DNA of 64,000 bases from contig CAMZFU010000002.1 in assembly GCA_947306185.1 (NCBI GenBank), positions 2,128 through 66,127 of the forward strand, given 5' to 3'. This DNA comes from an uncultured Pseudomonadota bacterium. GTDB lineage: Bacteria > Pseudomonadota > Alphaproteobacteria > Rs-D84. Below the pieces are notes generated by a model. The model did no database searches. It was given only the letters and a program-made list of their open reading frames with translations, and was not told the origin of the DNA. The position numbers and the translations under genes were made by a program. The first letter of the stretch is position 1, and the number at the start of each line of letters is the position of its first letter. Shown here in pieces: positions 1,074-13,254 of this stretch.

Positions 1074-3326
1074 TTATAAAATTTGGCGTTTACCCTTGGC
1101 ATCGGCTGCACTAACAATGCCTTCCTGTTCCATACGTTCCATAAAGCCGGCGGCCTTGTTATATCCAACCCCTAAACGGCGTTGAATGTAAGATATTGTC
1201 GGTTTTTTATCACGCAAAACATATTCTTTGGCCATCGCATATAAATCGCCACCTTCGCCCGATGATATTGCGCCACCAACACCACCAGCAGATGCATCAT
1301 CCGCATTATCAACAACACCTTCGATATATTTAGGTTCACCTTGGGACCGTAAGAAATCACCAATACGTTGCAATTCCGGATTATCTATGAACGCAGCATG
1401 GATACGCACAGGCAACCGCCCAGATTCACTGAATAACATATCACCTTTATCCAACAGGTTTTCCGCGCCTTTTTCACCCAATGATGTAATAGAATCTTGG
1501 ATGCTGCGTGCCTGGAACGAAATACGCGTTGGGAAGTTTGCCTTGATTGCCCCGGTAATAATTGTCGCATCTGGACGCTGGGTCGCCATAACAAGGTGTA
1601 TCCCCGCGGCACGCGCCTTTTGCGCAATACGTTGCAGACATACATCCACTTCCTTGCGCGCAATGTTCATAAGGTCTGCGACTTCGTCAACGATGATGAC
1701 AATGTATGGTATATCAGACAAATCAACTTCTTGGGTTTCATATAACAATTCACCTGTTTCTTCATCTGTTCCAACCGCGACTTGGCGTGTTACAACCTCG
1801 CCTGCATCACGTTTGGCGGCAACCGTTTCATTATACTGTTCTATGTTTTGGGCATTAAACGTTTGTAACTGTTTATACCTATCGTCCATTTCACGCACCG
1901 CCCATTTAAGTGCATTAACCGCCGCCGCCGCATCATTTTTTACAATCGGCGTAATAAGGTGCGGAATATCATCCCAAAACCCAAAGTCAACCCCTTTGGG
2001 GTCGATAATCATCAATTTACATTTATCCGGTGTAAAGTGATACACAATAGATGTTATAATAGATTGAACAAATACCGATTTACCGGTTCCGGTACGTCCC
2101 GCAACCAACATATGTGGCATTTTTGCCAAATCAAAATACATTGGCCCCCCCGCGATATTAACCCCCAATGCCAATGGTATTTTATATTTGGAATTCACAA
2201 ATAAATCATCTTCAACTAATTCGCGGAAACGGACCGTTTGGCGATCAAGGTTGACCATTTCAACACCAATCAATTCTGTACGCGGAATATGCGCAATACG
2301 GATTCTTTCGGTTGCCATCGCACGCGTCATATCATTGACGGTCTTGCTCACATCAACCATCTTGGTCCCGCTTTCTGGTTTAAATTCATAAAGTGTAATA
2401 ATTGGTCCAGGGCGAATCCCCGAGACCACACCGTTGACATTGTATTCTGAAAAATGTTGCTCCAATAATGAGGCCTGACGTTTTAATTCTGGGGTAACGG
2501 TATTTTTACGGAAATTAGAACGTTCCAAAAATTCTGGATCTGGTAATTCATATTCAACGGCTTCACTATCAGAAGTTATAATGGCAGTTTTGCGACGCGG
2601 TTTCTTGCGTGGTTTTGTTTTTTCTTCTTCCTCCTCTTCTTCCTCTTCGGCTTCTTCAACCTCTTCTTCGTCTTCTTCGGATTCTTCTTCATCTTCTTCC
2701 TGTGGGATTTCGCGCATCAAATGGAACGCGGTCAGCAACCAACGCAACACACGCCAAAATGCACGAACAATACGCATAACATCACTAAAACTTATATGTA
2801 ATAATATGCCGGCGATAATAAGAAATCCCGCAATGCACAAAATACCAACGGCAATACCCACCCCACCAAGTACACTTGAAATATCGGCGGCGGCAACAGA
2901 ACCAACCATCCCACCAAACGTCGCACGTGGCGCAATTAACCCAAAACCGGCGGCACCCAAACATACCGCAACAAATCCACGTAATATGTTATATTCCGGG
3001 GTACCATCACCATCGCCCCCCAACATAAGGTTTACACCGTACCGTCCAATACATAACAAGATAAATAATGCTGGAATAAATCCAATCATATAACGCAATA
3101 TTCCAACAAAGTTCCCCATCAAAGATTGATTACCAAAATTTCCCGCGGCCGATACACCATCCAGATATGGATTATGAAACAGCAATGCCAACACTGCCCA
3201 CGTTGCAAACAACGCAACGGCAATGCCACACAATTTTTTGGCGAACCCTTTTAATGCCCCAGAAACACTTTCTGGCAAAAGTTTCGATTTATCACTCATA
3301 CTTGTTATTGTATCATAAAAAATCAC
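1074..3326 (-). CDS. ftsK: DNA translocase FtsK
   Basis: The 750-aa protein has N-terminal TM helices, a Glu-rich acidic linker and a Walker A motif (GRTGTGKS). The C-terminal winged-helix gamma domain is present (ISYIQRRLGVGYNKAAGFMERME). The start could be 3326 or 3299. Confidence 0.95.
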   Translation of the reverse strand: MIFYDTITSMSDKSKLLPESVSGALKGFAKKLCGIAVALFATWAVLALLFHNPYLDGVSAAGNFGNQSLMGNFVGILRYMIGFIPALFILLCIGRYGVNLMLGGDGDGTPEYNILRGFVAVCLGAAGFGLIAPRATFGGMVGSVAAADISSVLGGVGIAVGILCIAGFLIIAGILLHISFSDVMRIVRAFWRVLRWLLTAFHLMREIPQEEDEEESEEDEEEVEEAEEEEEEEEEKTKPRKKPRRKTAIITSDSEAVEYELPDPEFLERSNFRKNTVTPELKRQASLLEQHFSEYNVNGVVSGIRPGPIITLYEFKPESGTKMVDVSKTVNDMTRAMATERIRIAHIPRTELIGVEMVNLDRQTVRFRELVEDDLFVNSKYKIPLALGVNIAGGPMYFDLAKMPHMLVAGRTGTGKSVFVQSIITSIVYHFTPDKCKLMIIDPKGVDFGFWDDIPHLITPIVKNDAAAAVNALKWAVREMDDRYKQLQTFNAQNIEQYNETVAAKRDAGEVVTRQVAVGTDEETGELLYETQEVDLSDIPYIVIIVDEVADLMNIARKEVDVCLQRIAQKARAAGIHLVMATQRPDATIITGAIKANFPTRISFQARSIQDSITSLGEKGAENLLDKGDMLFSESGRLPVRIHAAFIDNPELQRIGDFLRSQGEPKYIEGVVDNADDASAGGVGGAISSGEGGDLYAMAKEYVLRDKKPTISYIQRRLGVGYNKAAGFMERMEQEGIVSAADAKGKRQIL

Positions 3327-3349
3327 AAAATCATAGCCGCCAACGCCAT

Positions 3350-3994
3350 TTATTTAACGCGACGCGTTAAAATATCTTTGACAATAACTGCTGTCGCGGT
3401 TCCGATAAACGCACCCATGATAACATCAGATGGCCAATGCGCACCGGCACACACACGCGACACACCGATAACCACCGCCAATATCCAGAAAAACCAGCGA
3501 CCGCGTGGCGCCAACATCCCAATCATCACCAATCCCGCAAACGATGCAAATGTGTGTCCTGATGGCATTGAATGAAATGCCCAATCTTTTGCAAATGGGA
3601 AAAATCCAGTTGTATTTAATGCTTCATAAAAAATCGGGCGCATACGACCAACCAGTATTTTTATTACACCACCAATCACCGTTGCACAGCATACAGAACA
3701 CAAAACCCAAAATGCATAACTATGTCTTACCATATGATACGCTTCTAAAAGATTGACCTTGGTCTTGGTCTGGATAATTTTGCGAATATAAAAAATCACC
3801 ACTATCAAGAACGATATCACAATCCAATTTTTCGTATTGAATATGGCACTAAGAATATCCCATATCTTATAATCAAATTGGCGCAAAAAATTATAAATCG
3901 GGATATCAAATCCAAATATTCCCCATATCACAATTGCACAAGTCAAAACAAATGCAATACTAATTTCCACCAATCTGTTTTTCATACCAATCAT
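3350..3994 (-). CDS. PAP2-family lipid phosphatase
   Basis: All three PAP2 motifs are present: KX6RP (KILVGRMRP), PSGH (MPSGHT) and SRX5HX3D (SRVCAGAHWPSD). The protein is a polytopic membrane protein. Confidence 0.85.
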   Translation of the reverse strand: MIGMKNRLVEISIAFVLTCAIVIWGIFGFDIPIYNFLRQFDYKIWDILSAIFNTKNWIVISFLIVVIFYIRKIIQTKTKVNLLEAYHMVRHSYAFWVLCSVCCATVIGGVIKILVGRMRPIFYEALNTTGFFPFAKDWAFHSMPSGHTFASFAGLVMIGMLAPRGRWFFWILAVVIGVSRVCAGAHWPSDVIMGAFIGTATAVIVKDILTRRVK

Positions 3995-7990: not shown

Positions 7991-8317
7991 TTATTTTTCA
8001 ACACTCGCGACTGCGTTCTTGCTAACCTCTATCACGACACCTTTGGCGATTTCCATTTCCAATGTTTTATCACCAACCTTTTTCACGGTACCATAAATCC
8101 CGGCGGCCATAATACGGTCACCAACCTTGATAGAATCAACCATCTTTTGATATTCCGCCATACGCCGTTTATTCGGACGCACCATAAAGAAATATATGAT
8201 TACGAATATAATCAAACAATAAAGCAACATTCCACCCCAACTGCCCTGTTGTGCGGCGGCGGGTGCTGTCCCAGTTGCGGTATCAACAACGGTATCTACT
8301 GCTGTAACTTCTTGCAT
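7991..8317 (-). CDS. yajC: preprotein translocase subunit YajC
   Basis: The 108-aa protein has a single TM helix followed by the YajC core (RPNKRRMAEYQKMVDSIKVGDRIMAAGIYGTV). Confidence 0.9.
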   Translation of the reverse strand: MQEVTAVDTVVDTATGTAPAAAQQGSWGGMLLYCLIIFVIIYFFMVRPNKRRMAEYQKMVDSIKVGDRIMAAGIYGTVKKVGDKTLEMEIAKGVVIEVSKNAVASVEK

Positions 8318-8433
8318 TTATTTTCTCCTTTTTATTATTTCTTATGCCCCAAGGGTAGAAAAAAAAACATACAATGTAAAGGAATAAGTGCAAATGATAA
8401 ATACCCATTGTTTAGCGATATTGCAAACAGATT

Positions 8434-9468
8434 TTATGCAACGGCGAAATTTAACCGTGGGGATACAAAATTAGATATTGAATTCGATATATTACCGATA
8501 TTACGGCATAGTTTATTAATCAGATTATACGTGCACGCCCATTTAAGCCACCCATGTGCCGATGCCAATTGGCCGACGGCGTGGTCACTGGTGTCACCAT
8601 AGTATGCGATATTCATTAATCGATGACGTATTTTTTTTACCCCCCGCGGCCGCAACAATACAAATTTTATAAAATGCCGGTAACCAATAATATTAACCCC
8701 ATGCGATACCGGATGCAGAAAATATTTTGATAAAATCAGTTTCAATTTATTACCCAAAAAGACATTTATACGTTGCAGATACCCCCACAAAGCATGTTTA
8801 TCATTACCGAACAAACAGAAATCATCACAATAGCGCAGGTAATCATGACAATGCAAAATATGTTTTACGAACATATCCAATTGATGCAAGTACACATTTC
8901 CCATCCATTGACTGGTCAGGTTTCCGATTGGCAAATTTGTATCACCGCCGACGGACCGCACGATATCATTTAACACCCGGATTAATCGACTATCGCCGAT
9001 TTTTTGTTTTAATATATCCATCATAATATCATGATTAATTGACGGAAAGAATTTTTTTATATCGCATTGCAGGTAATATTTATTTCTGCGTACGAATTGC
9101 ATTACGCGTTTTGATGCGGCATGCAATCCACGGCCGGGGATACACGCATAAGAATCACGAATAAACATCCGTTGCCAAATTGGTCCCAACACATTGATAA
9201 TTGCATGATGAACGATATGGTCGGGATAAAGTGGCAATTCATAGATATCCCGTTTTTTGGGTTCGTATATAGTGAACACGCGATAGTTTGATGTTTTGAA
9301 CGTTCCGTCCATCAGTGATTGGCGCAATTTTTTCAGTAAATTTTCGCTATCCGCCAAGAATTTTTTGGTAGATTTTTTATTTTTCTTGCTGCGCACGGCT
9401 TTTTTTGCGGCCAACCTAAAATTTTCTTCGGAAATAAATTCGTCCCACAAATTTTTGTAACGTTTCAT
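8434..9468 (-). CDS. diversity-generating retroelement reverse transcriptase
   Basis: The 344-aa protein has RT motifs QCDIKKFFPSINH and PGRGLHAA. It carries the DGR-diagnostic IGNLTSQ (nt 8908..8928), the YCDD catalytic box (nt 8821..8832) and a C-terminal HGWLKW..TYNL. It lies about 0.6 kb from a TR/VR pair with adenine-only mismatches. Confidence 0.93.
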   Translation of the reverse strand: MKRYKNLWDEFISEENFRLAAKKAVRSKKNKKSTKKFLADSENLLKKLRQSLMDGTFKTSNYRVFTIYEPKKRDIYELPLYPDHIVHHAIINVLGPIWQRMFIRDSYACIPGRGLHAASKRVMQFVRRNKYYLQCDIKKFFPSINHDIMMDILKQKIGDSRLIRVLNDIVRSVGGDTNLPIGNLTSQWMGNVYLHQLDMFVKHILHCHDYLRYCDDFCLFGNDKHALWGYLQRINVFLGNKLKLILSKYFLHPVSHGVNIIGYRHFIKFVLLRPRGVKKIRHRLMNIAYYGDTSDHAVGQLASAHGWLKWACTYNLINKLCRNIGNISNSISNFVSPRLNFAVA

Positions 9469-9469
9469 T

Positions 9470-9796
9470 TTACGAAAAGGAATAATATTTATCTATTTTT
9501 ACGATTGTTGTTTTGAATGGAATATTTCCTTTGACAGATTTTATTTGGTCCAACAAAACGACACTGCCGGTGAACAGGATACAAACTTCGCCATTAAACA
9601 CGAATTGTAATTGCAAACATTCCGCATTATCATGTTTTTTTGATTGTGTGATTCTAAAATCCACGATAAGTATTTCTTGGTTTAGAATATTATCCAATCT
9701 GCGTTTGGTTCCGGGCAACGGCAATTTATCCCGCGCGAACGCGGAAAATTTTGGGCAACCGTCTTGTTGTAACATATTTATTTCGTCCAAGGTCAT
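9470..9796 (-). CDS. DGR-associated small protein, candidate non-Avd accessory factor
   Basis: This 108-aa ORF lies between the TR and the RT. Its stop is 1 nt before the RT ATG (TAA-A-ATG), suggesting translational coupling. It is near-neutral (14 K/R vs 12 D/E by my count) with a beta-strand-like pattern, and I recognise no family. Confidence 0.6.
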   Translation of the reverse strand: MTLDEINMLQQDGCPKFSAFARDKLPLPGTKRRLDNILNQEILIVDFRITQSKKHDNAECLQLQFVFNGEVCILFTGSVVLLDQIKSVKGNIPFKTTIVKIDKYYSFS

Positions 9797-10058
9797 ATTC
9801 CGGCCCTTTGTTTTTACGATTGGATATCCCGGGCGTTCGCCACGATACAGAAACGGCTACTGACCCAGATATCCCCTGCGTTTTGTGTTTGTCCGACGCA
9901 ATCGGAACGATTACGTGCGGCCGGGCTGTGACATCCCACCTTGATGCAAGGCAGTATAGAAACAGGCATAATTGTGTTACCTGAAAAGTGTTTCATACAC
10001 TTTGTCCTGCAGGTTAGCAAAATTCTGTTTGGTATTCAGAATAACCGCACACCAAGAA
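9797..10058 (-). ncRNA. structured spacer region of the DGR RNA (between TR and accessory ORF)
   Basis: Several hairpins are visible on the minus strand: attctg/cagaat, aaagtgt/acacttt, ccttg/caagg and aatcg-ttc-cgatt with an extended imperfect stem. A ~12-bp GGGATATCTGGG / CCCGGGATATCC helix is also present. The position matches the spacer RNA of known DGRs. Confidence 0.45.
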
Positions 10059-10190
10059 GCGACAGCCCCAAAAACGCCCGACCGGAAGTCGGAGTTGTTG
10101 CGGACGTTGTTACCGCAGTTGTTCGCACAGTTGTCCGCACAATCGGACGACGACGAGTTCGAGTTGTTGAACACCCAGCGGGACACAGCA
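10059..10190 (-). repeat. DGR template repeat (TR)
   Basis: The 132-bp repeat aligns without gaps to 10701..10832. The coding-sense strand carries 23 adenines: ten AAC codons, one GAT and two GAC. It lies next to the RT and is not part of a credible secreted-protein gene. Confidence 0.92.
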
Positions 10191-10338
10191 ACACGACCAG
10201 CGATTCCAACCGTATTCGATACCACAGCCCATTCCTGTGCGTGACACACCGTTACACATTTTGGTGCGTCACACGCGGGAATTGTTCCAAATGCAAATGC
10301 ATTTGACCAAGGGTTCGCCTTTGGTGAAATGCACGGGG

Positions 10339-10612
10339 AGTGGGTAGTTGTTGGTGTAAGTTGTTGGTGTAAGTAAAACCACTCCCCACTAATCACTAAT
10401 CACTTCCACTTTTTCCCGTCATCCTGAACTTGTTTCAGGATGACGGCGTTCATTCTGATACCATTGTCATTCCCAGCGAAGCGTGGGAATCCAGTCAATT
10501 TGTGTTCCGTGCCGCTACCCACAACTTTTTATTCACTGGATTGCCACGGTCGTCCTTACGGACTCCCTCGCAATGACAATTTACACTCCCCACTAACACT
10601 AATCACTAACAC
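10339..10612. mobile_element. palindromic MITE-like dispersed repeat, copy A
   Basis: The 198-bp core (10401..10598) matches 11206..11403 with only 3 mismatches, and the flanks are also similar. Internal perfect 13-bp hairpin at 10416..10446 (ccgtcatcctgaa/ttcaggatgacgg). Further pairings are attccca/tgggaat and cattgtcatt/aatgacaat, and the ends are ttagtg/cactaa-rich and inverted. Confidence 0.6.
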
Positions 10613-10618
10613 TGCCCT

Positions 10619-10639
10619 GGGGGCGGGGTCGCCGCCCCC
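10619..10639 (-). promoter_or_regulatory. GC-only hairpin downstream of VR
   Basis: gggggcgg-ggtcg-ccgccccc forms a perfect 8-bp G/C stem. It lies 55 nt beyond the target-gene stop codon. Confidence 0.45.
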
Positions 10640-10667
10640 AGCCCCCCACCCATTACCGGTTTCCGTA

Positions 10668-10690
10668 CCTGATGTGCGTTGCACATCAGG
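10668..10690 (-). promoter_or_regulatory. hairpin immediately 3' of VR/target stop codon (candidate DGR target-recognition or terminator element)
   Basis: cctgatgtgc-gtt-gcacatcagg forms a perfect 10-bp stem with a 3-nt loop. It starts 4 nt after the stop codon (10694..10696) and no U-tract follows it. Confidence 0.55.
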
Positions 10691-10693
10691 GCA

Positions 10694-11119
10694 TCAATTT
10701 GCGACAGCCCCAAAAACGCCCGACCGGAAGCCGGAGTTGTAGCGGACGTAGTAACCGCAGCCGTTCGCACAGCTGTCCGCACAAGCGGACGACGACGAGA
10801 ACGAGGCGTAGAACACCCAGCGGGACACAGCAGGATGGGTCATTTTGCACCAACATTTAACACCACCCGTTTCGTATTGTTCGGCATTACTGGCCACCGC
10901 GTACGAACCGCCCGTGTCATTACACACCGCGACACCCGACACATTCCCGTACGGAAACACCGTTGTCCACGTCATATTTGCGGCATTATATGTATATGAC
11001 GTACCTTCGATATACGGGTCCAACACCACCGTGACATAATCAGATGCACTGCACATCACCGATGCAGATGCCGCCCCGGCCATCATCATCACAACAATTG
11101 ATACAATACATTTTTTCAT
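10694..11119 (-). CDS. DGR target: small secreted Cys-rich variable protein
   Basis: The 141-aa protein has a signal peptide (MKKCIVSIVVMMMAGAASASV). Its C-terminal 44 codons are the VR (…AVSRWVFYASFSSSSACADSCANGCGYYVRYNSGFRSGVFGAVAN*). An RBS-like aaaggaaag lies upstream. Confidence 0.9.
   Translation of the reverse strand: MKKCIVSIVVMMMAGAASASVMCSASDYVTVVLDPYIEGTSYTYNAANMTWTTVFPYGNVSGVAVCNDTGGSYAVASNAEQYETGGVKCWCKMTHPAVSRWVFYASFSSSSACADSCANGCGYYVRYNSGFRSGVFGAVAN
10701..10832 (-). repeat. DGR variable repeat (VR)
   Basis: The 132-bp repeat matches the TR at 119 of 132 positions. All 13 mismatches fall at TR adenines (plus-strand T). It ends 4 nt before the target stop codon. Confidence 0.92.
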
Positions 11120-11151
11120 ACTTTCTTTCCTTTGTTTTAGTGGTTAGTGGT

Positions 11152-11415
11152 AGTGGGTAGTTGTTAGTGTAAGTTGTTAATGAAAGTAAAACCACTAACA
11201 CTAATCACTTCCACTTTTTCCCGTCATCCTGAACTTGTTTCAGAATTCCGGCGTTCATTCTGATACCATTGTCATTCCCAGCGAAGCGTGGGAATCCAGT
11301 CAATTTGTGTTCCGTGCCGCTACCCACAACTTTTTATTCACTGGATTGCCACGGTCGTCCTTACGGACTCCCTCGCAATGACAATTTACACTCCCCACTA
11401 ACAACTAACACCAAC
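11152..11415. mobile_element. palindromic MITE-like dispersed repeat, copy B
   Basis: This is a direct repeat of copy A. The 198-bp core at 11206..11403 differs at 3 positions, all inside the 13-bp hairpin, which is degenerate here. Confidence 0.6.
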
Positions 11416-11420
11416 CTATC

Positions 11421-11562
11421 CCATCTGCCCGGGGGGCCAACCGTATTTTTTGCGGCCGGGACGTTTTTCCCCTTGTCGAAGGGGGGGAAACCCCGTTTTA
11501 CCGGGTAGGAATATGGAAGTACGCCCCGAAATACGGTGCAACAATTCCCCCCGGGCAGATGG
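11421..11562. repeat. long inverted repeat / large stem-loop downstream of the paralog gene
   Basis: A perfect 16-bp IR (ccatctgcccgggggg at 11421..11436, ccccccgggcagatgg at 11547..11562) is present. A 9-bp helix accgtattt/aaatacggt (11440..11448 with 11529..11537) extends it, and inner G/C-run hairpins are visible. Confidence 0.5.
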
Positions 11563-11573
11563 GACGGCGTGTT

Positions 11574-12008
11574 TTACCACACCGATTCCAATACCGCCGT
11601 ACGAAACGTCGTACTACTTTGCACCGCCGTTCCGCACGCCAATGTGCATCCCGATGCACATGACGATGCATCAGAATACGTATCTAAAAACACCCAATAC
11701 GACGACATCGGGGTTTGCATCGCACACCAACAATACGGACCTTCGTCCGCCGCAACGGTATATAATGCCGTGTTAACCGTGTTCGCCGTCCCGGTAATCT
11801 CGTTACAGGCCGCATCGCCCGTTATCGTGTAATTTGCAAATGTCGCCGACCATTTCTTGTCCGTGGCATTTGTTACCGATGCAGATGTGCCGTTGGTGGA
11901 TTTGCTGATTGATGCAATATATGTGTTCTTGTGTTTGCACATTGTCTGCGCGGATGCGCATGTAACCGCACATATTCCAATCAAACTTGTAATCATTATT
12001 CTTTTCAT
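11574..12008 (-). CDS. secreted Cys-rich protein, non-diversified paralog of the DGR target
   Basis: I place the start at the internal ATG 12008 (MKRIMITSLIGICAVTCASAQT signal peptide, RBS agggaa), giving 144 aa. It shares the scaffold MC..W..F....CN....CWC.M.P..S.WVF...C A..C...CG..V.....FR with the target. It has no DNA-level match to the TR. Confidence 0.8.
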   Translation of the reverse strand: MKRIMITSLIGICAVTCASAQTMCKHKNTYIASISKSTNGTSASVTNATDKKWSATFANYTITGDAACNEITGTANTVNTALYTVAADEGPYCWCAMQTPMSSYWVFLDTYSDASSCASGCTLACGTAVQSSTTFRTAVLESVW

Positions 12009-12025
12009 CTTGTTGTTCCCTTGGT

Positions 12026-12898
12026 TTATTTTGTTGTGTGATATATCGTCCCGTCGGGGCTTATAAGATTCACCGCACCAGGTGCATTGCCAGATGCCAA
12101 ATTGATATAGCATACGGCCGTAGGTGCCTGGACCCCCAATGCATGTTCTGTGGTTTTTTGTGCATATACCGGAAATGTATATGACCCAACATGCAATTTG
12201 GTGATTCCCCCACCACATAAGGGCACACATTGTCCGCCCCATGTTAATGATTCGCCTGTATCACAAAATGCCGTGCAAAAATCTTCGCTTTGGCGTTCGT
12301 CGCAATCAATCGCGTCAGATGCCCGAACGTAATTCGTACCGCACGTGCCCCCCGATGTGGGAACAAATGTCGTACCCGCACCCGATACATAATTAATCCA
12401 ACCCGTCGGACATTTCGTATTATCATTTGCCGTACAGGTACCATTATTCATATACTCGTTCGTGCCACACAACGTTGGTGCAGAATTCAATATCCCGCCC
12501 GTCGATATAACATACGACCCCGTCGGTACATTAAATAACGCCGTACCATTCCAACAATGCCCATTATTGTCTATGCCACCAACCGTCGTGGACGCGGTTG
12601 TTACCTCGAAATACCCGCTGTCGCAACGACCACGCGATAACGATGTACATGTGTCATCACTCATATATTCGTTCGTGCCACATAACGTAACTTCGTCTTG
12701 TAACAACATCCCGTTAAAGTATGCATTTAAATGTGACGGTGAATCATAAACCGCATAACCTGATGGGCAATGCCCCGATGTATCAATTGCGACAAATGTT
12801 GTTGTTCCACCCACGGTAACTGTATCCACTGGACACGTAACACCAAATGCCGCATGTCCAAAAAATACAAATAAAAATATAATATTTAATTTTCTCAT
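12026..12898 (-). CDS. secreted Cys-rich repeat protein
   Basis: The 290-aa protein has a signal peptide (MRKLNIIFLFVFFGHAAFG). It contains two ~70-aa internal repeats, each ending in TLCGTNEYM(S/N)xxTCT. The protein is G/T/C-rich and I recognise no family. Confidence 0.8.
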   Translation of the reverse strand: MRKLNIIFLFVFFGHAAFGVTCPVDTVTVGGTTTFVAIDTSGHCPSGYAVYDSPSHLNAYFNGMLLQDEVTLCGTNEYMSDDTCTSLSRGRCDSGYFEVTTASTTVGGIDNNGHCWNGTALFNVPTGSYVISTGGILNSAPTLCGTNEYMNNGTCTANDNTKCPTGWINYVSGAGTTFVPTSGGTCGTNYVRASDAIDCDERQSEDFCTAFCDTGESLTWGGQCVPLCGGGITKLHVGSYTFPVYAQKTTEHALGVQAPTAVCYINLASGNAPGAVNLISPDGTIYHTTK

Positions 12899-12932
12899 TT
12901 CCCCCGAATCCTATTTTTGTGTGCAACATACA

Positions 12933-12961
12933 CAAAAAACCGCCGATAAGGATCTGGCGGT
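12933..12961 (-). promoter_or_regulatory. terminator-like hairpin with U-tract in the leader of the Cys-rich gene (possible attenuator)
   Basis: On the minus strand the sequence reads accgcc-agatccttatc-ggcggt followed by tttttt. It lies 35-60 nt upstream of the ATG at 12898. The stem shares 2 nt with an alternative 9-bp helix (12960..12968 with 13022..13030). Confidence 0.4.
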
Positions 12962-13049
12962 CGGGGCGTTCGTAAATCACATAAAGCAATGATTCCTGGG
13001 CCTTTATATATACACCTCAGGCGCCCCGACTACGCGGGGACTTTTGCTT

Positions 13050-13116
13050 TTACGACACAAAATATCGAAAATTACGGATTACGACATATGTGCCGGCTTT
13101 ATGTGGGCTTACGACA
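13050..13116. promoter_or_regulatory. three direct TTACGACA repeats spaced 29-30 bp (candidate regulator binding sites)
   Basis: TTACGACA occurs at 13050, 13079 and 13109, with a related TTACGGA at 13072. The sites sit in the 400-bp non-coding gap upstream of 12026..12898. Confidence 0.35.
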
Positions 13117-13254
13117 GCCCAGAATGCAGATTCCCATCTGATTCGGTATGATTGTAAAAGAATTGCGATGTTATTGCAAGACATTTTCATGTATGTATTG
13201 TATCAAGATGGGCTACTAATACTGAACAGGAACAAAAGCGGGTTTATACACCGT

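Follow-up and report, generated by a model that had tools for sequence, protein, structure and literature searches.

The window analysed here, a 64,000-nucleotide stretch of contig CAMZFU010000002.1, comes from an uncultured gut alphaproteobacterium related to Candidatus Enterousia and carries a chromosomal diversity-generating retroelement (DGR). We read this DGR as diversifying a small secreted cysteine-rich target protein on a scaffold that is probably not a C-type lectin (CLec) fold, beside a fixed partner paralog, and put the probability of this overall reading at roughly 0.75. To our knowledge, all structurally characterised DGR variable proteins use the CLec fold. The element is mechanistically standard apart from its accessory gene. 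Its core features are the following.

10694..11119, minus strand: DGR target gene, coding for a secreted protein of 141 aa with 7 Cys in the mature chain
10701..10832, minus strand: variable repeat (VR), coding for target aa 97-139
10059..10190, minus strand: template repeat (TR), matching the VR over 132 nt
8434..9468, minus strand: DGR reverse transcriptase (RT) of 344 aa, matching Pfam RVT_1 and PHROG 1423
11574..12008, minus strand: fixed paralog of 144 aa, undiversified, with the same predicted fold as the target; a conserved partner

The TR/VR pair and its activity

Over 132 nt the TR and the VR show 13 mismatches, of which 13/13 are at adenines of the TR and affect the first or second codon position. 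Altogether 23 adenines occur in the TR, all within 13 codons (10 AAC, 1 GAT and 2 GAC) that encode target aa 104, 105, 107, 112, 115, 116, 119, 120, 123, 124, 127, 128 and 130. The invariant TR codons (TCG/TCC for Ser, TGT/TGC for Cys, GCG for Ala and others) contain no adenine. This mapping bears out the first-pass annotation, made from the sequence alone, which had placed the adenine-templated positions between the conserved Cys residues; they lie both between and around these. The allowed codons give 15^10 x 4^3 = ~3.7e13 protein variants, and the VR ends 2 codons short of the target stop. The RT would copy the TR RNA with adenine-specific errors, and the resulting cDNA would take the place of the VR in the 3'-terminal part of the target gene, rewriting the 13 codons (10 AAC, 3 GAY).

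Contigs L001-L004, from other samples, carry the same locus at ~98% nucleotide identity. The TR is identical between the window and the sister strains L001-L003, and between the window and L001-L004 the VR shows 16 nt differences, which change 11 aa; every one lies where the TR has an adenine. In a VR from a sister strain, 18/18 mismatches to the TR likewise fall at TR adenines. Between the window and the sister strains the paralog is changed at 5 nt and 1 aa and the RT at 1 aa. A third VR allele is present in P0003. Because the TR is the same and the 16 VR differences lie at TR-adenine sites in strains that are 98% identical, mutagenic homing is active in nature, and the strain comparison is direct evidence of it in natural populations.

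The RT matches Pfam RVT_1 (2.7e-10) and PHROG 1423 'reverse transcriptase' (3.6e-97). Its sequence contains LPIGNLTSQW, in which the IGNLTSQ motif can be read directly; IGxxxSQ is a hallmark of DGR RTs. Relatives of DGR type number 158 among phages, including Bordetella phages, and orthologues of 56-70% identity adjoin members of the target family in 9 GTDB genomes. Profiles, motif and phage relatives thus place an RT of the DGR clade near the TR. The closest phage relative (43% identity) adjoins a classical Mtd-type target recognised by Pfam (PF21916, Mtd_2nd), whose VR has the usual GG.W...SGSR...IGGR look. The RT lineage is ordinary; the scaffold is unusual.

The target scaffold and its predicted fold

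Both ORFs proposed in the first-pass annotation are real. The target (11119..10694, 141 aa) and its neighbour (12008..11574, 144 aa) begin with canonical Sec-type signals, of MKK, 13 hydrophobic residues and ASA in the target and of MKR, 14 hydrophobic residues and ASA in the paralog. They are 31% identical (BLASTP E 8e-20). The scaffold motifs that they were said to share recur throughout the family: in family alignment A2, C23, W51, F55, G62, C66, G86, C89, W90, C91, M93, P96, S99 and W101 are invariant, and C113, C117, C121 and R132 are nearly so. The count of 8 Cys in the mature protein has to be corrected, as one of the eight Cys of the target, C4, lies inside the signal peptide; the mature chain is ~122 aa long and has seven. 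A lipoprotein reading of the conserved N-terminal Cys was rejected on the sequence and alignment A2, because position -1 holds Met or Val, with an AxA site before it.

The AlphaFold2 model of the target, made with the family alignment, has a mean pLDDT of 83, with block means of 87-98 for aa 30-140. It contains strands at 41-45, 50-55, 58-67, 88-95 and 101-106 and helices at 110-127 and 129-137. The model of the paralog, made with a different alignment, also has a mean pLDDT of 83 and shows the same topology with an added N-terminal hairpin. Across the core, pLDDT exceeds 90 in both models. Support that does not depend on AlphaFold2 comes from the periodicity of conservation (per-column entropy) in 296 domains, which is strongest at 95 degrees over aa 108-137, the value of a helix, and at 170 degrees over aa 41-67, that of a strand. 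Within the pattern C-A-x-x-C-A-x-x-C-G-x-x-V-R-x-x, Cys and Ala lie on one arc of the helix, and the variable pairs 115/116, 119/120, 123/124 and 127/128, together with residue 112, lie opposite. The alternation of Cys at i, i+4 and i+8 with pairs of variable residues thus sets a buried arc of the helix apart from a variable one. The predicted helix, the periodicity and this pattern of Cys and variable residues together lead us to see in the VR the exposed side of a helix pinned by disulfides.

According to the models, the target domain would comprise ~110 aa with six core Cys, an antiparallel beta-sheet being followed by a C-terminal helical hairpin. C89-x-C91 lies on the predicted strand 88-95 and C113/C117/C121 on the predicted helix 110-127. 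The Cys of the CxxxCxxxC motif in helix 1 presumably face the sheet that bears C89-W-C91 and C66, forming three disulfides. The 13 variable residues would cover the end of the last strand (104, 105, 107), the exposed face of helix 1 and the turn between the helices (128, 130). The DGR would then display its variation on a disulfide-pinned helix and not on a C-type lectin fold.

The first-pass annotation could match the target neither to the usual large C-type-lectin nor to the Ig-like DGR targets, and wider searches, which took in the DUF1566 and FGE types, agree. The target, the paralog and the 290-aa protein encoded upstream of them find nothing in Pfam, NCBIfam, PHROGs or PADLOC, and for the target and paralog no Pfam match appears even at E <= 1. 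There is accordingly no match to a CLec-type profile (DUF1566, FGE-sulfatase, Mtd) and none to an Ig family, and the target is a single-domain protein. Sequence and profile (HMM) searches of the PDB gave no significant match; the hits were to Fab chains only, at E >= 0.07, over the signal peptide and the N-terminal part. Foldseek, run with both confident models against 350,542 PDB chains and with the target model against BFVD, returned nothing at E <= 0.001 and a best TM-score of ~0.3, in searches that had no CLec positive control. The predicted structures thus show no similarity to solved CLec variable proteins and do not suggest an ordinary CLec, DUF1566 or FGE target. The VR falls on a predicted strand end, helix 110-127, a turn and helix 129-137, and not on CLec strands and loops.

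The target could instead be a highly reduced, disulfide-stapled CLec protein, with the AlphaFold2 helices wrong or Foldseek too insensitive. Its VR is C-terminal and framed by S-x-W and, 30 residues on, F-R, which is very similar to the W...GFR frame in VRs of the FGE and Mtd types; the RT lineage is akin to that of Mtd-type DGRs; and Roux et al. anticipated that VR domains still uncharacterised would turn out to be new variants of C-Lec (PMC8144416). Yet pLDDT over the helical VR is 93-98 in two independent AlphaFold2 runs, the 95-degree periodicity in the 296 domains backs a helix, and Foldseek, PDB profile, Pfam and NCBIfam searches find no CLec match. The period-4 pattern of Cys and variable residues fits one face of a helix, whereas on a strand the variable residues would occupy both faces. 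The conserved Arg also occurs in undiversified members and is therefore a family trait, not an imported CLec motif. We consider a reduced CLec protein unlikely. Between the minimal disulfide-stapled CLec variant and the new fold that the first-pass annotation had offered as alternatives, the new fold is the better fit, given a VR predicted to be helical.

Several points tell against a non-CLec target with a helix-borne VR. The fold, the disulfides and the surface exposure are predictions only. The resemblance of the VR flanks (S-x-W ... 30 aa ... F-R) to the W...GFR frame, already mentioned, belongs here as well. Seven mature Cys are an odd number, and three disulfides leave one over. The target shows no anchor, lipobox or link to a secretion system, so that periplasm, surface and medium are all candidate locations, and the ligand and the complex proposed below are pure inference. 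An RT adjoins only 8 of the 32 family loci with enough downstream sequence, so many members are trans targets or undiversified.

The fixed paralog and the 290-aa partner

The first-pass annotation took the paralog for an un-diversified or decayed copy of the target. Its statement that the paralog has no DNA identity to the TR stands, as does its observation on codon type: at the 13 equivalent positions the codons are TTA, GAT, TAT, TCA, TCG, GGA, TTG, GCG, ACG, GCG, AGT, AGT and ACG, with NNC at 0/13. In the 64-kb window the paralog has no TR-like DNA match and there is no second RT, and the sister-strain flanks hold no cognate TR. The paralog is undiversified but not decayed; it belongs to a separate orthologous subfamily which, to judge by sequence comparisons, is under purifying selection. 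Against two orthologues dN/dS is 0.14, and 0.16-0.20 in the C-terminal 45 codons that correspond to the VR, with dS near saturation. The subfamily has a conserved C-terminus of its own, FRTAxLESVW, and in 13 orthologues conservation at the VR-equivalent positions is on a par with that elsewhere in the protein. In 31/52 surveyed loci the variable member has a family member with a weaker score directly upstream of it, which is of the paralog type in the loci checked. This placement is kept across genomes whose targets share just 35-45% identity, and the same layout was found in human-gut contigs.

A decayed former target, drifting since the loss of its TR, would explain the common scaffold. All 13 equivalent residues (L, D, Y, S, S, G, L, A, T, A, S, S, T) can be reached from AAC, and the absence of NNC codons is what long drift would leave. 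Decay is nevertheless very unlikely in view of the low dN/dS, which extends into the VR-equivalent part, the conservation of the equivalent positions, the distinct C-terminal signature of the subfamily and the synteny kept in most related loci. In every locus the upstream paralog is without a TR match.

Diversification in trans by a second TR outside the window would be compatible with the trans targets that exist in this DGR clade and with the 64 kb of genome inspected. Strains that differ by 16 nt in the VR differ, however, by 5 nt and 1 aa in the paralog, and the change (A87S) lies outside the VR-equivalent region. The orthologues show no hypervariation, the window holds neither a TR-like match nor a second RT, and the adenines of the VR-equivalent stretch (25/129 nt) are scattered over codons that are not of NNC type. 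We therefore hold trans diversification of the paralog to be highly improbable and retain the fixed paralog as a maintained partner of the target.

A third gene completes the arrangement.

12026..12898, minus strand: secreted protein of 290 aa with 16 Cys; first gene of a conserved three-gene cluster

It ends 17 nt before the paralog start, and homologues stand directly upstream of the paralog in >20 related loci. Unannotated genes for 262 to 320 aa occupy the equivalent place in L061-L063. The 290-aa protein is unannotated wherever it occurs and has no match in Pfam, NCBIfam or the PDB. It contains an internal duplication (TLCGTNEYM..TCT occurs twice), seen in the DNA as a repeat at 12432-12475 and 12645-12688.

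The conserved unit, as far as gene content and order tell, is a set of three secreted proteins, all Cys-rich, with diversification confined to the last. Their synteny suggests that the three probably act jointly: paralog, variable target and 290-aa protein would form a secreted or periplasmic ligand-binding assembly with one variable subunit. The paralog and the target each have seven conserved mature Cys, of which the extra one near the N-terminus is missing from the internal domains of the giant family members described below. Its absence there leaves room for an intermolecular bond. We see about even odds for a wider proposal, in which the element is a second DGR scaffold, unrelated to CLec, that displays ~1e13 variants on a helix within a three-protein assembly of gut Alphaproteobacteria, and the seventh Cys could link the two paralogs as a heterodimer.

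The domain family

The target has 62 close relatives, all unnamed and none with a Pfam domain. When 1.84 billion cluster representatives were searched with a profile, 1,769 members came up at E <= 1e-3, 733 of them at E <= 1e-10. Most are secreted proteins of 130-170 aa, and some proteins, of up to 6,218 aa, contain the domain 2-7 times. The first-pass annotation is thus upheld on a family of small secreted Cys-rich proteins but not on its members being very small throughout. The six core Cys (66, 89, 91, 113, 117, 121) are kept in 273/296 domains. A Pfam search with a diverse 31-member alignment matched no family and there is no NCBIfam model; a second profile search with the diverse alignment found 'hypothetical protein' entries only. 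In the cluster records, giant and distant members have neither a name nor a taxon attached. All named sources are metagenome-assembled genomes (MAGs) of gut or rumen Alphaproteobacteria, many labelled Candidatus Enterousia, and a phage collection of 50,697 records holds no relative of the target.

These data bear on the state of the Cys residues. They could bind a metal or a cluster, which would make the target a periplasmic redox or metal protein with an incidentally diversified surface. Seven conserved Cys, an odd number, and the motifs CxC and CxxxCxxxC would suit this, and the host is probably an anaerobic gut bacterium, in whose periplasm disulfide formation is not guaranteed. Exactly six Cys remain, however, in multi-domain members without the N-terminal segment, a number that fits three intradomain disulfides, and a CxC strand with a CxxxC helix is a classical cysteine-stabilised helix geometry. 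The domain is also embedded in giant proteins, some of which have weak Pfam matches, all below the curated cut-offs, to adhesin-type repeats (BspA-LRR, Flg_new, DUF285). Metal binding is a doubtful alternative, and we favour three disulfides within the domain.

Two of the giant proteins, P0063 (4,750 aa) and P0064 (6,218 aa), contain 5-7 copies of the domain, each with all six Cys and with K, E or Q at the positions that are DGR-variable in the target. A 127-kb contig, L005, has five genes that end in the same VR-type module (2247-3889 and 9998-11224); the modules are ~80% mutually identical, with mismatches of all kinds. Three of the five encode proteins of 168-188 aa that match the family in the C-terminal third only, and the contig ends before any TR or RT. 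These genes suggest that the helical VR module may have been grafted onto other N-terminal domains.

DGR association in other genomes

The survey of loci covered 52 from GTDB representative genomes. At least 3 kb lies downstream of the family gene in 32/52, and 8/32 carry the RT together with an orthologue of the 108-aa ORF that precedes it in the window. A cognate TR for the strong family member was found in 8/9 RT-bearing loci, with 8-16 mismatches between TR and VR; the pairs come from eight species-level genomes other than that of the window. In 6 of those 8 loci the mismatches are all at adenines of the TR; one exception each occurs in L023 and L039. The contig ends <= 600 nt from the gene in 11 loci, as would fit assembly breaks where sequence is hypervariable or repeated. 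The TR of one horse-gut MAG has matches in VRs on four further contigs as well, with 15/15 mismatches at A in L010, and some of the matching genes have N-terminal extensions. The reach of these DGRs therefore extends in trans to several family members.

At the 13 positions, 123/296 domains are without K, E, Q, M and W, the residues unreachable by AAC mutagenesis; by rough estimate, chance would give a few per cent. A large minority of the family may on this count be DGR targets. Members inside giant proteins are clearly not. The entropy at the 13 positions, compared with that of the rest of the protein, is 2.50 vs 0.42 bits in the target subfamily and 0.63 vs 0.60 bits in the paralog subfamily, so that only the target is hypervariable.

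Comparison with known systems

The element shares with Mtd of Bordetella phage BPP-1 and TvpA of Treponema denticola a TR rich in AAC codons, an RT that is mutagenic at adenines, a C-terminal VR followed by a hairpin, invariant residues interleaved with variable ones, and a diversity of ~1e13. It differs from them in a target without sequence, profile or predicted-structure similarity to CLec, in a VR predicted as a Cys-pinned alpha-helix instead of CLec strands and loops, and in an accessory gene that is not Avd-like. The target is moreover a single domain of ~120 aa, with neither N-terminal trimerisation nor other domains.

LdtA of Legionella pneumophila is a Tat-exported lipoprotein with a CLec-type VR. 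The two systems are alike in that a cellular, non-phage proteobacterial DGR diversifies a small exported protein, which in the case of LdtA is surface-displayed. The present system has a Sec signal, no lipobox, a non-CLec prediction, a fixed paralog and a third Cys-rich partner gene. In the cysteine-stabilised alpha/beta (CS-alpha-beta) motif of defensins and scorpion toxins a helix CxxxC is paired with a strand CxC, a geometry that the models would imply for C89-W-C91 and C113/C117/C121. The putative pairing here differs in a reversed chain order (CxC first), a third Cys on the helix, a much larger domain of ~110 aa and no detectable homology. In concept the target also resembles engineered helical binder libraries of the Affibody type, in which the solvent face of a rigid helix is randomised and the buried face is fixed. 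Those libraries are man-made and the one described here is a natural retroelement library, so the likeness is one of analogy, not of homology.

The literature describes VRs as found in C-Lec folds (PMC8632793). Annotated VRs were "systematically" C-Lec in a large survey, which expected unknown VR domains to be more of the same (PMC8144416), and those of gut Bacteroides are described as uniformly C-Lec (bioRxiv 10.1101/2024.11.15.621889). In a survey of MAGs a small number of VRs fell in domains other than CLec, as judged from InterPro annotation only (PMC11661182). Our literature search found no paper on a Cys-rich or helical VR. If the helix-display scaffold is confirmed, mutagenic retrohoming is not bound to one fold, and a very small (~120 aa) natural scaffold becomes available for binder engineering. 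It would also let an unannotated family of 1,769 cluster representatives be named, provide a first way into its function, and open the conserved arrangement of variable and fixed paralogs to direct testing.

Gene order, accessory ORF and signals

Every feature of the DGR cluster lies on the minus strand, and the order of transcription is 290-aa ORF, 144-aa paralog, 141-aa target, TR, 108-aa ORF and RT. Housekeeping genes stand on both sides, YajC and SecDF on one and MutL and GreA on the other; the element is therefore chromosomal and not part of a prophage. The remaining features are as follows.

10668..10690, minus strand: perfect 10-bp hairpin with a 3-nt loop (CCTGATGTGC-AAC-GCACATCAGG), found by folding
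10617..10641, minus strand: GC-rich hairpin 3' of the target gene, found by folding
9998..10022, minus strand: conserved motif TTTTGCTAACCTGCAGGACAAAGTG, ~37 nt downstream of the TR
9470..9796, minus strand: accessory ORF of 108 aa between TR and RT, kept across RT-bearing loci

The 10-bp hairpin starts 10 nt past the end of the TR/VR homology and 4 nt past the stop codon. Similar short-loop hairpins follow the VR, and not the TR, in L009, L014, L016, L017, L023 and L039. The hairpin matches the target-recognition hairpin or cruciform that known DGRs reportedly possess. A VR at the 3' end of the gene, followed by a predicted target-recognition hairpin (the IMH region, for initiation of mutagenic homing), is thus present at the level of features. 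The GC-rich hairpin at 10617..10641 has no T-tract and for that reason is not a canonical intrinsic terminator.

A motif near-identical to TTTTGCTAACCTGCAGGACAAAGTG (TTTGGCTAACCTG[CT][AG]GGACAAAGTG) occurs at the same post-TR offset in L009, L014, L016, L017, L022, L023 and L024, and in a more diverged form in L039. It is almost invariant in most related loci although the RTs are just 56-70% identical. It probably belongs to the spacer of the DGR RNA and is a candidate for a priming or structural role in that RNA; the analogy with the spacer of BPP-1 would suggest cDNA priming. An Rfam search of 8000-13200 returned sub-threshold noise only.

The 108-aa ORF is found directly upstream of the RT in every RT-bearing locus, at 55-65% identity, and has a pI of 8.5. 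It has no Pfam, NCBIfam or PDB match, its sub-threshold matches being TIGR01295 (E 0.031) and PHROG 19665 (unknown function, E 0.0044), and it does not resemble Avd, HRDC, MSL or CH1. Its size and charge do not suit CH1 and MSL as described (PMC5758913). It is not recognisable as the four-helix bundle accessory protein Avd, which is missing from about 30% of known DGRs and hence does not define membership (PMC8632793). The ORF may represent a new class of DGR accessory protein.

Inserted elements and intergenic repeats

An element of ~235 nt is present in two copies (10357-10591 and 11157-11395) that are 93-96% identical and have three hairpin modules (e.g. GTCATTCCCAGCGAAGCGTGGGAATCCAG, CGTCATCCTGAACTTGTTTCAGGATGACG). 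The copies resemble palindromic repeats of the Rickettsiales type. One lies between the paralog and the target and the other between the target and the TR, and the flanks look locally rearranged or inverted. Both are absent from the 98%-identical L001 and are therefore recent insertions. A 217-nt repeat before the target gene and the TR had been considered as a tandem 'promoter plus gene' duplication; this was rejected, as L001 lacks both copies, in favour of a mobile hairpin-rich element.

Upstream of the TR, an ORF-like stretch on the minus strand (10191-10396) shows a faint ordered likeness to W51..F55.G58...C66, with a protein score of 36 that 28/1,000 shuffles equal. The stretch could be what remains of a duplicated copy of the target gene, but the signal is marginal. 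Directly after the paralog stop, a hairpin of ~170 nt (11405-11575, minus strand) has a minimum free energy of -88.8 kcal/mol and z = -5.3, which no shuffle matched. It is conserved in L001 and has no Rfam match, and it could separate the expression of the fixed and variable genes. Runs of the heptamer GTTAGTG/CACTAAC form inverted repeats around the target, at 10336-10400, 10584-10613, 11134-11196 and 11389-11416. In L001 these heptamers form a hairpin at the place where the strain of the window has the inserted element.

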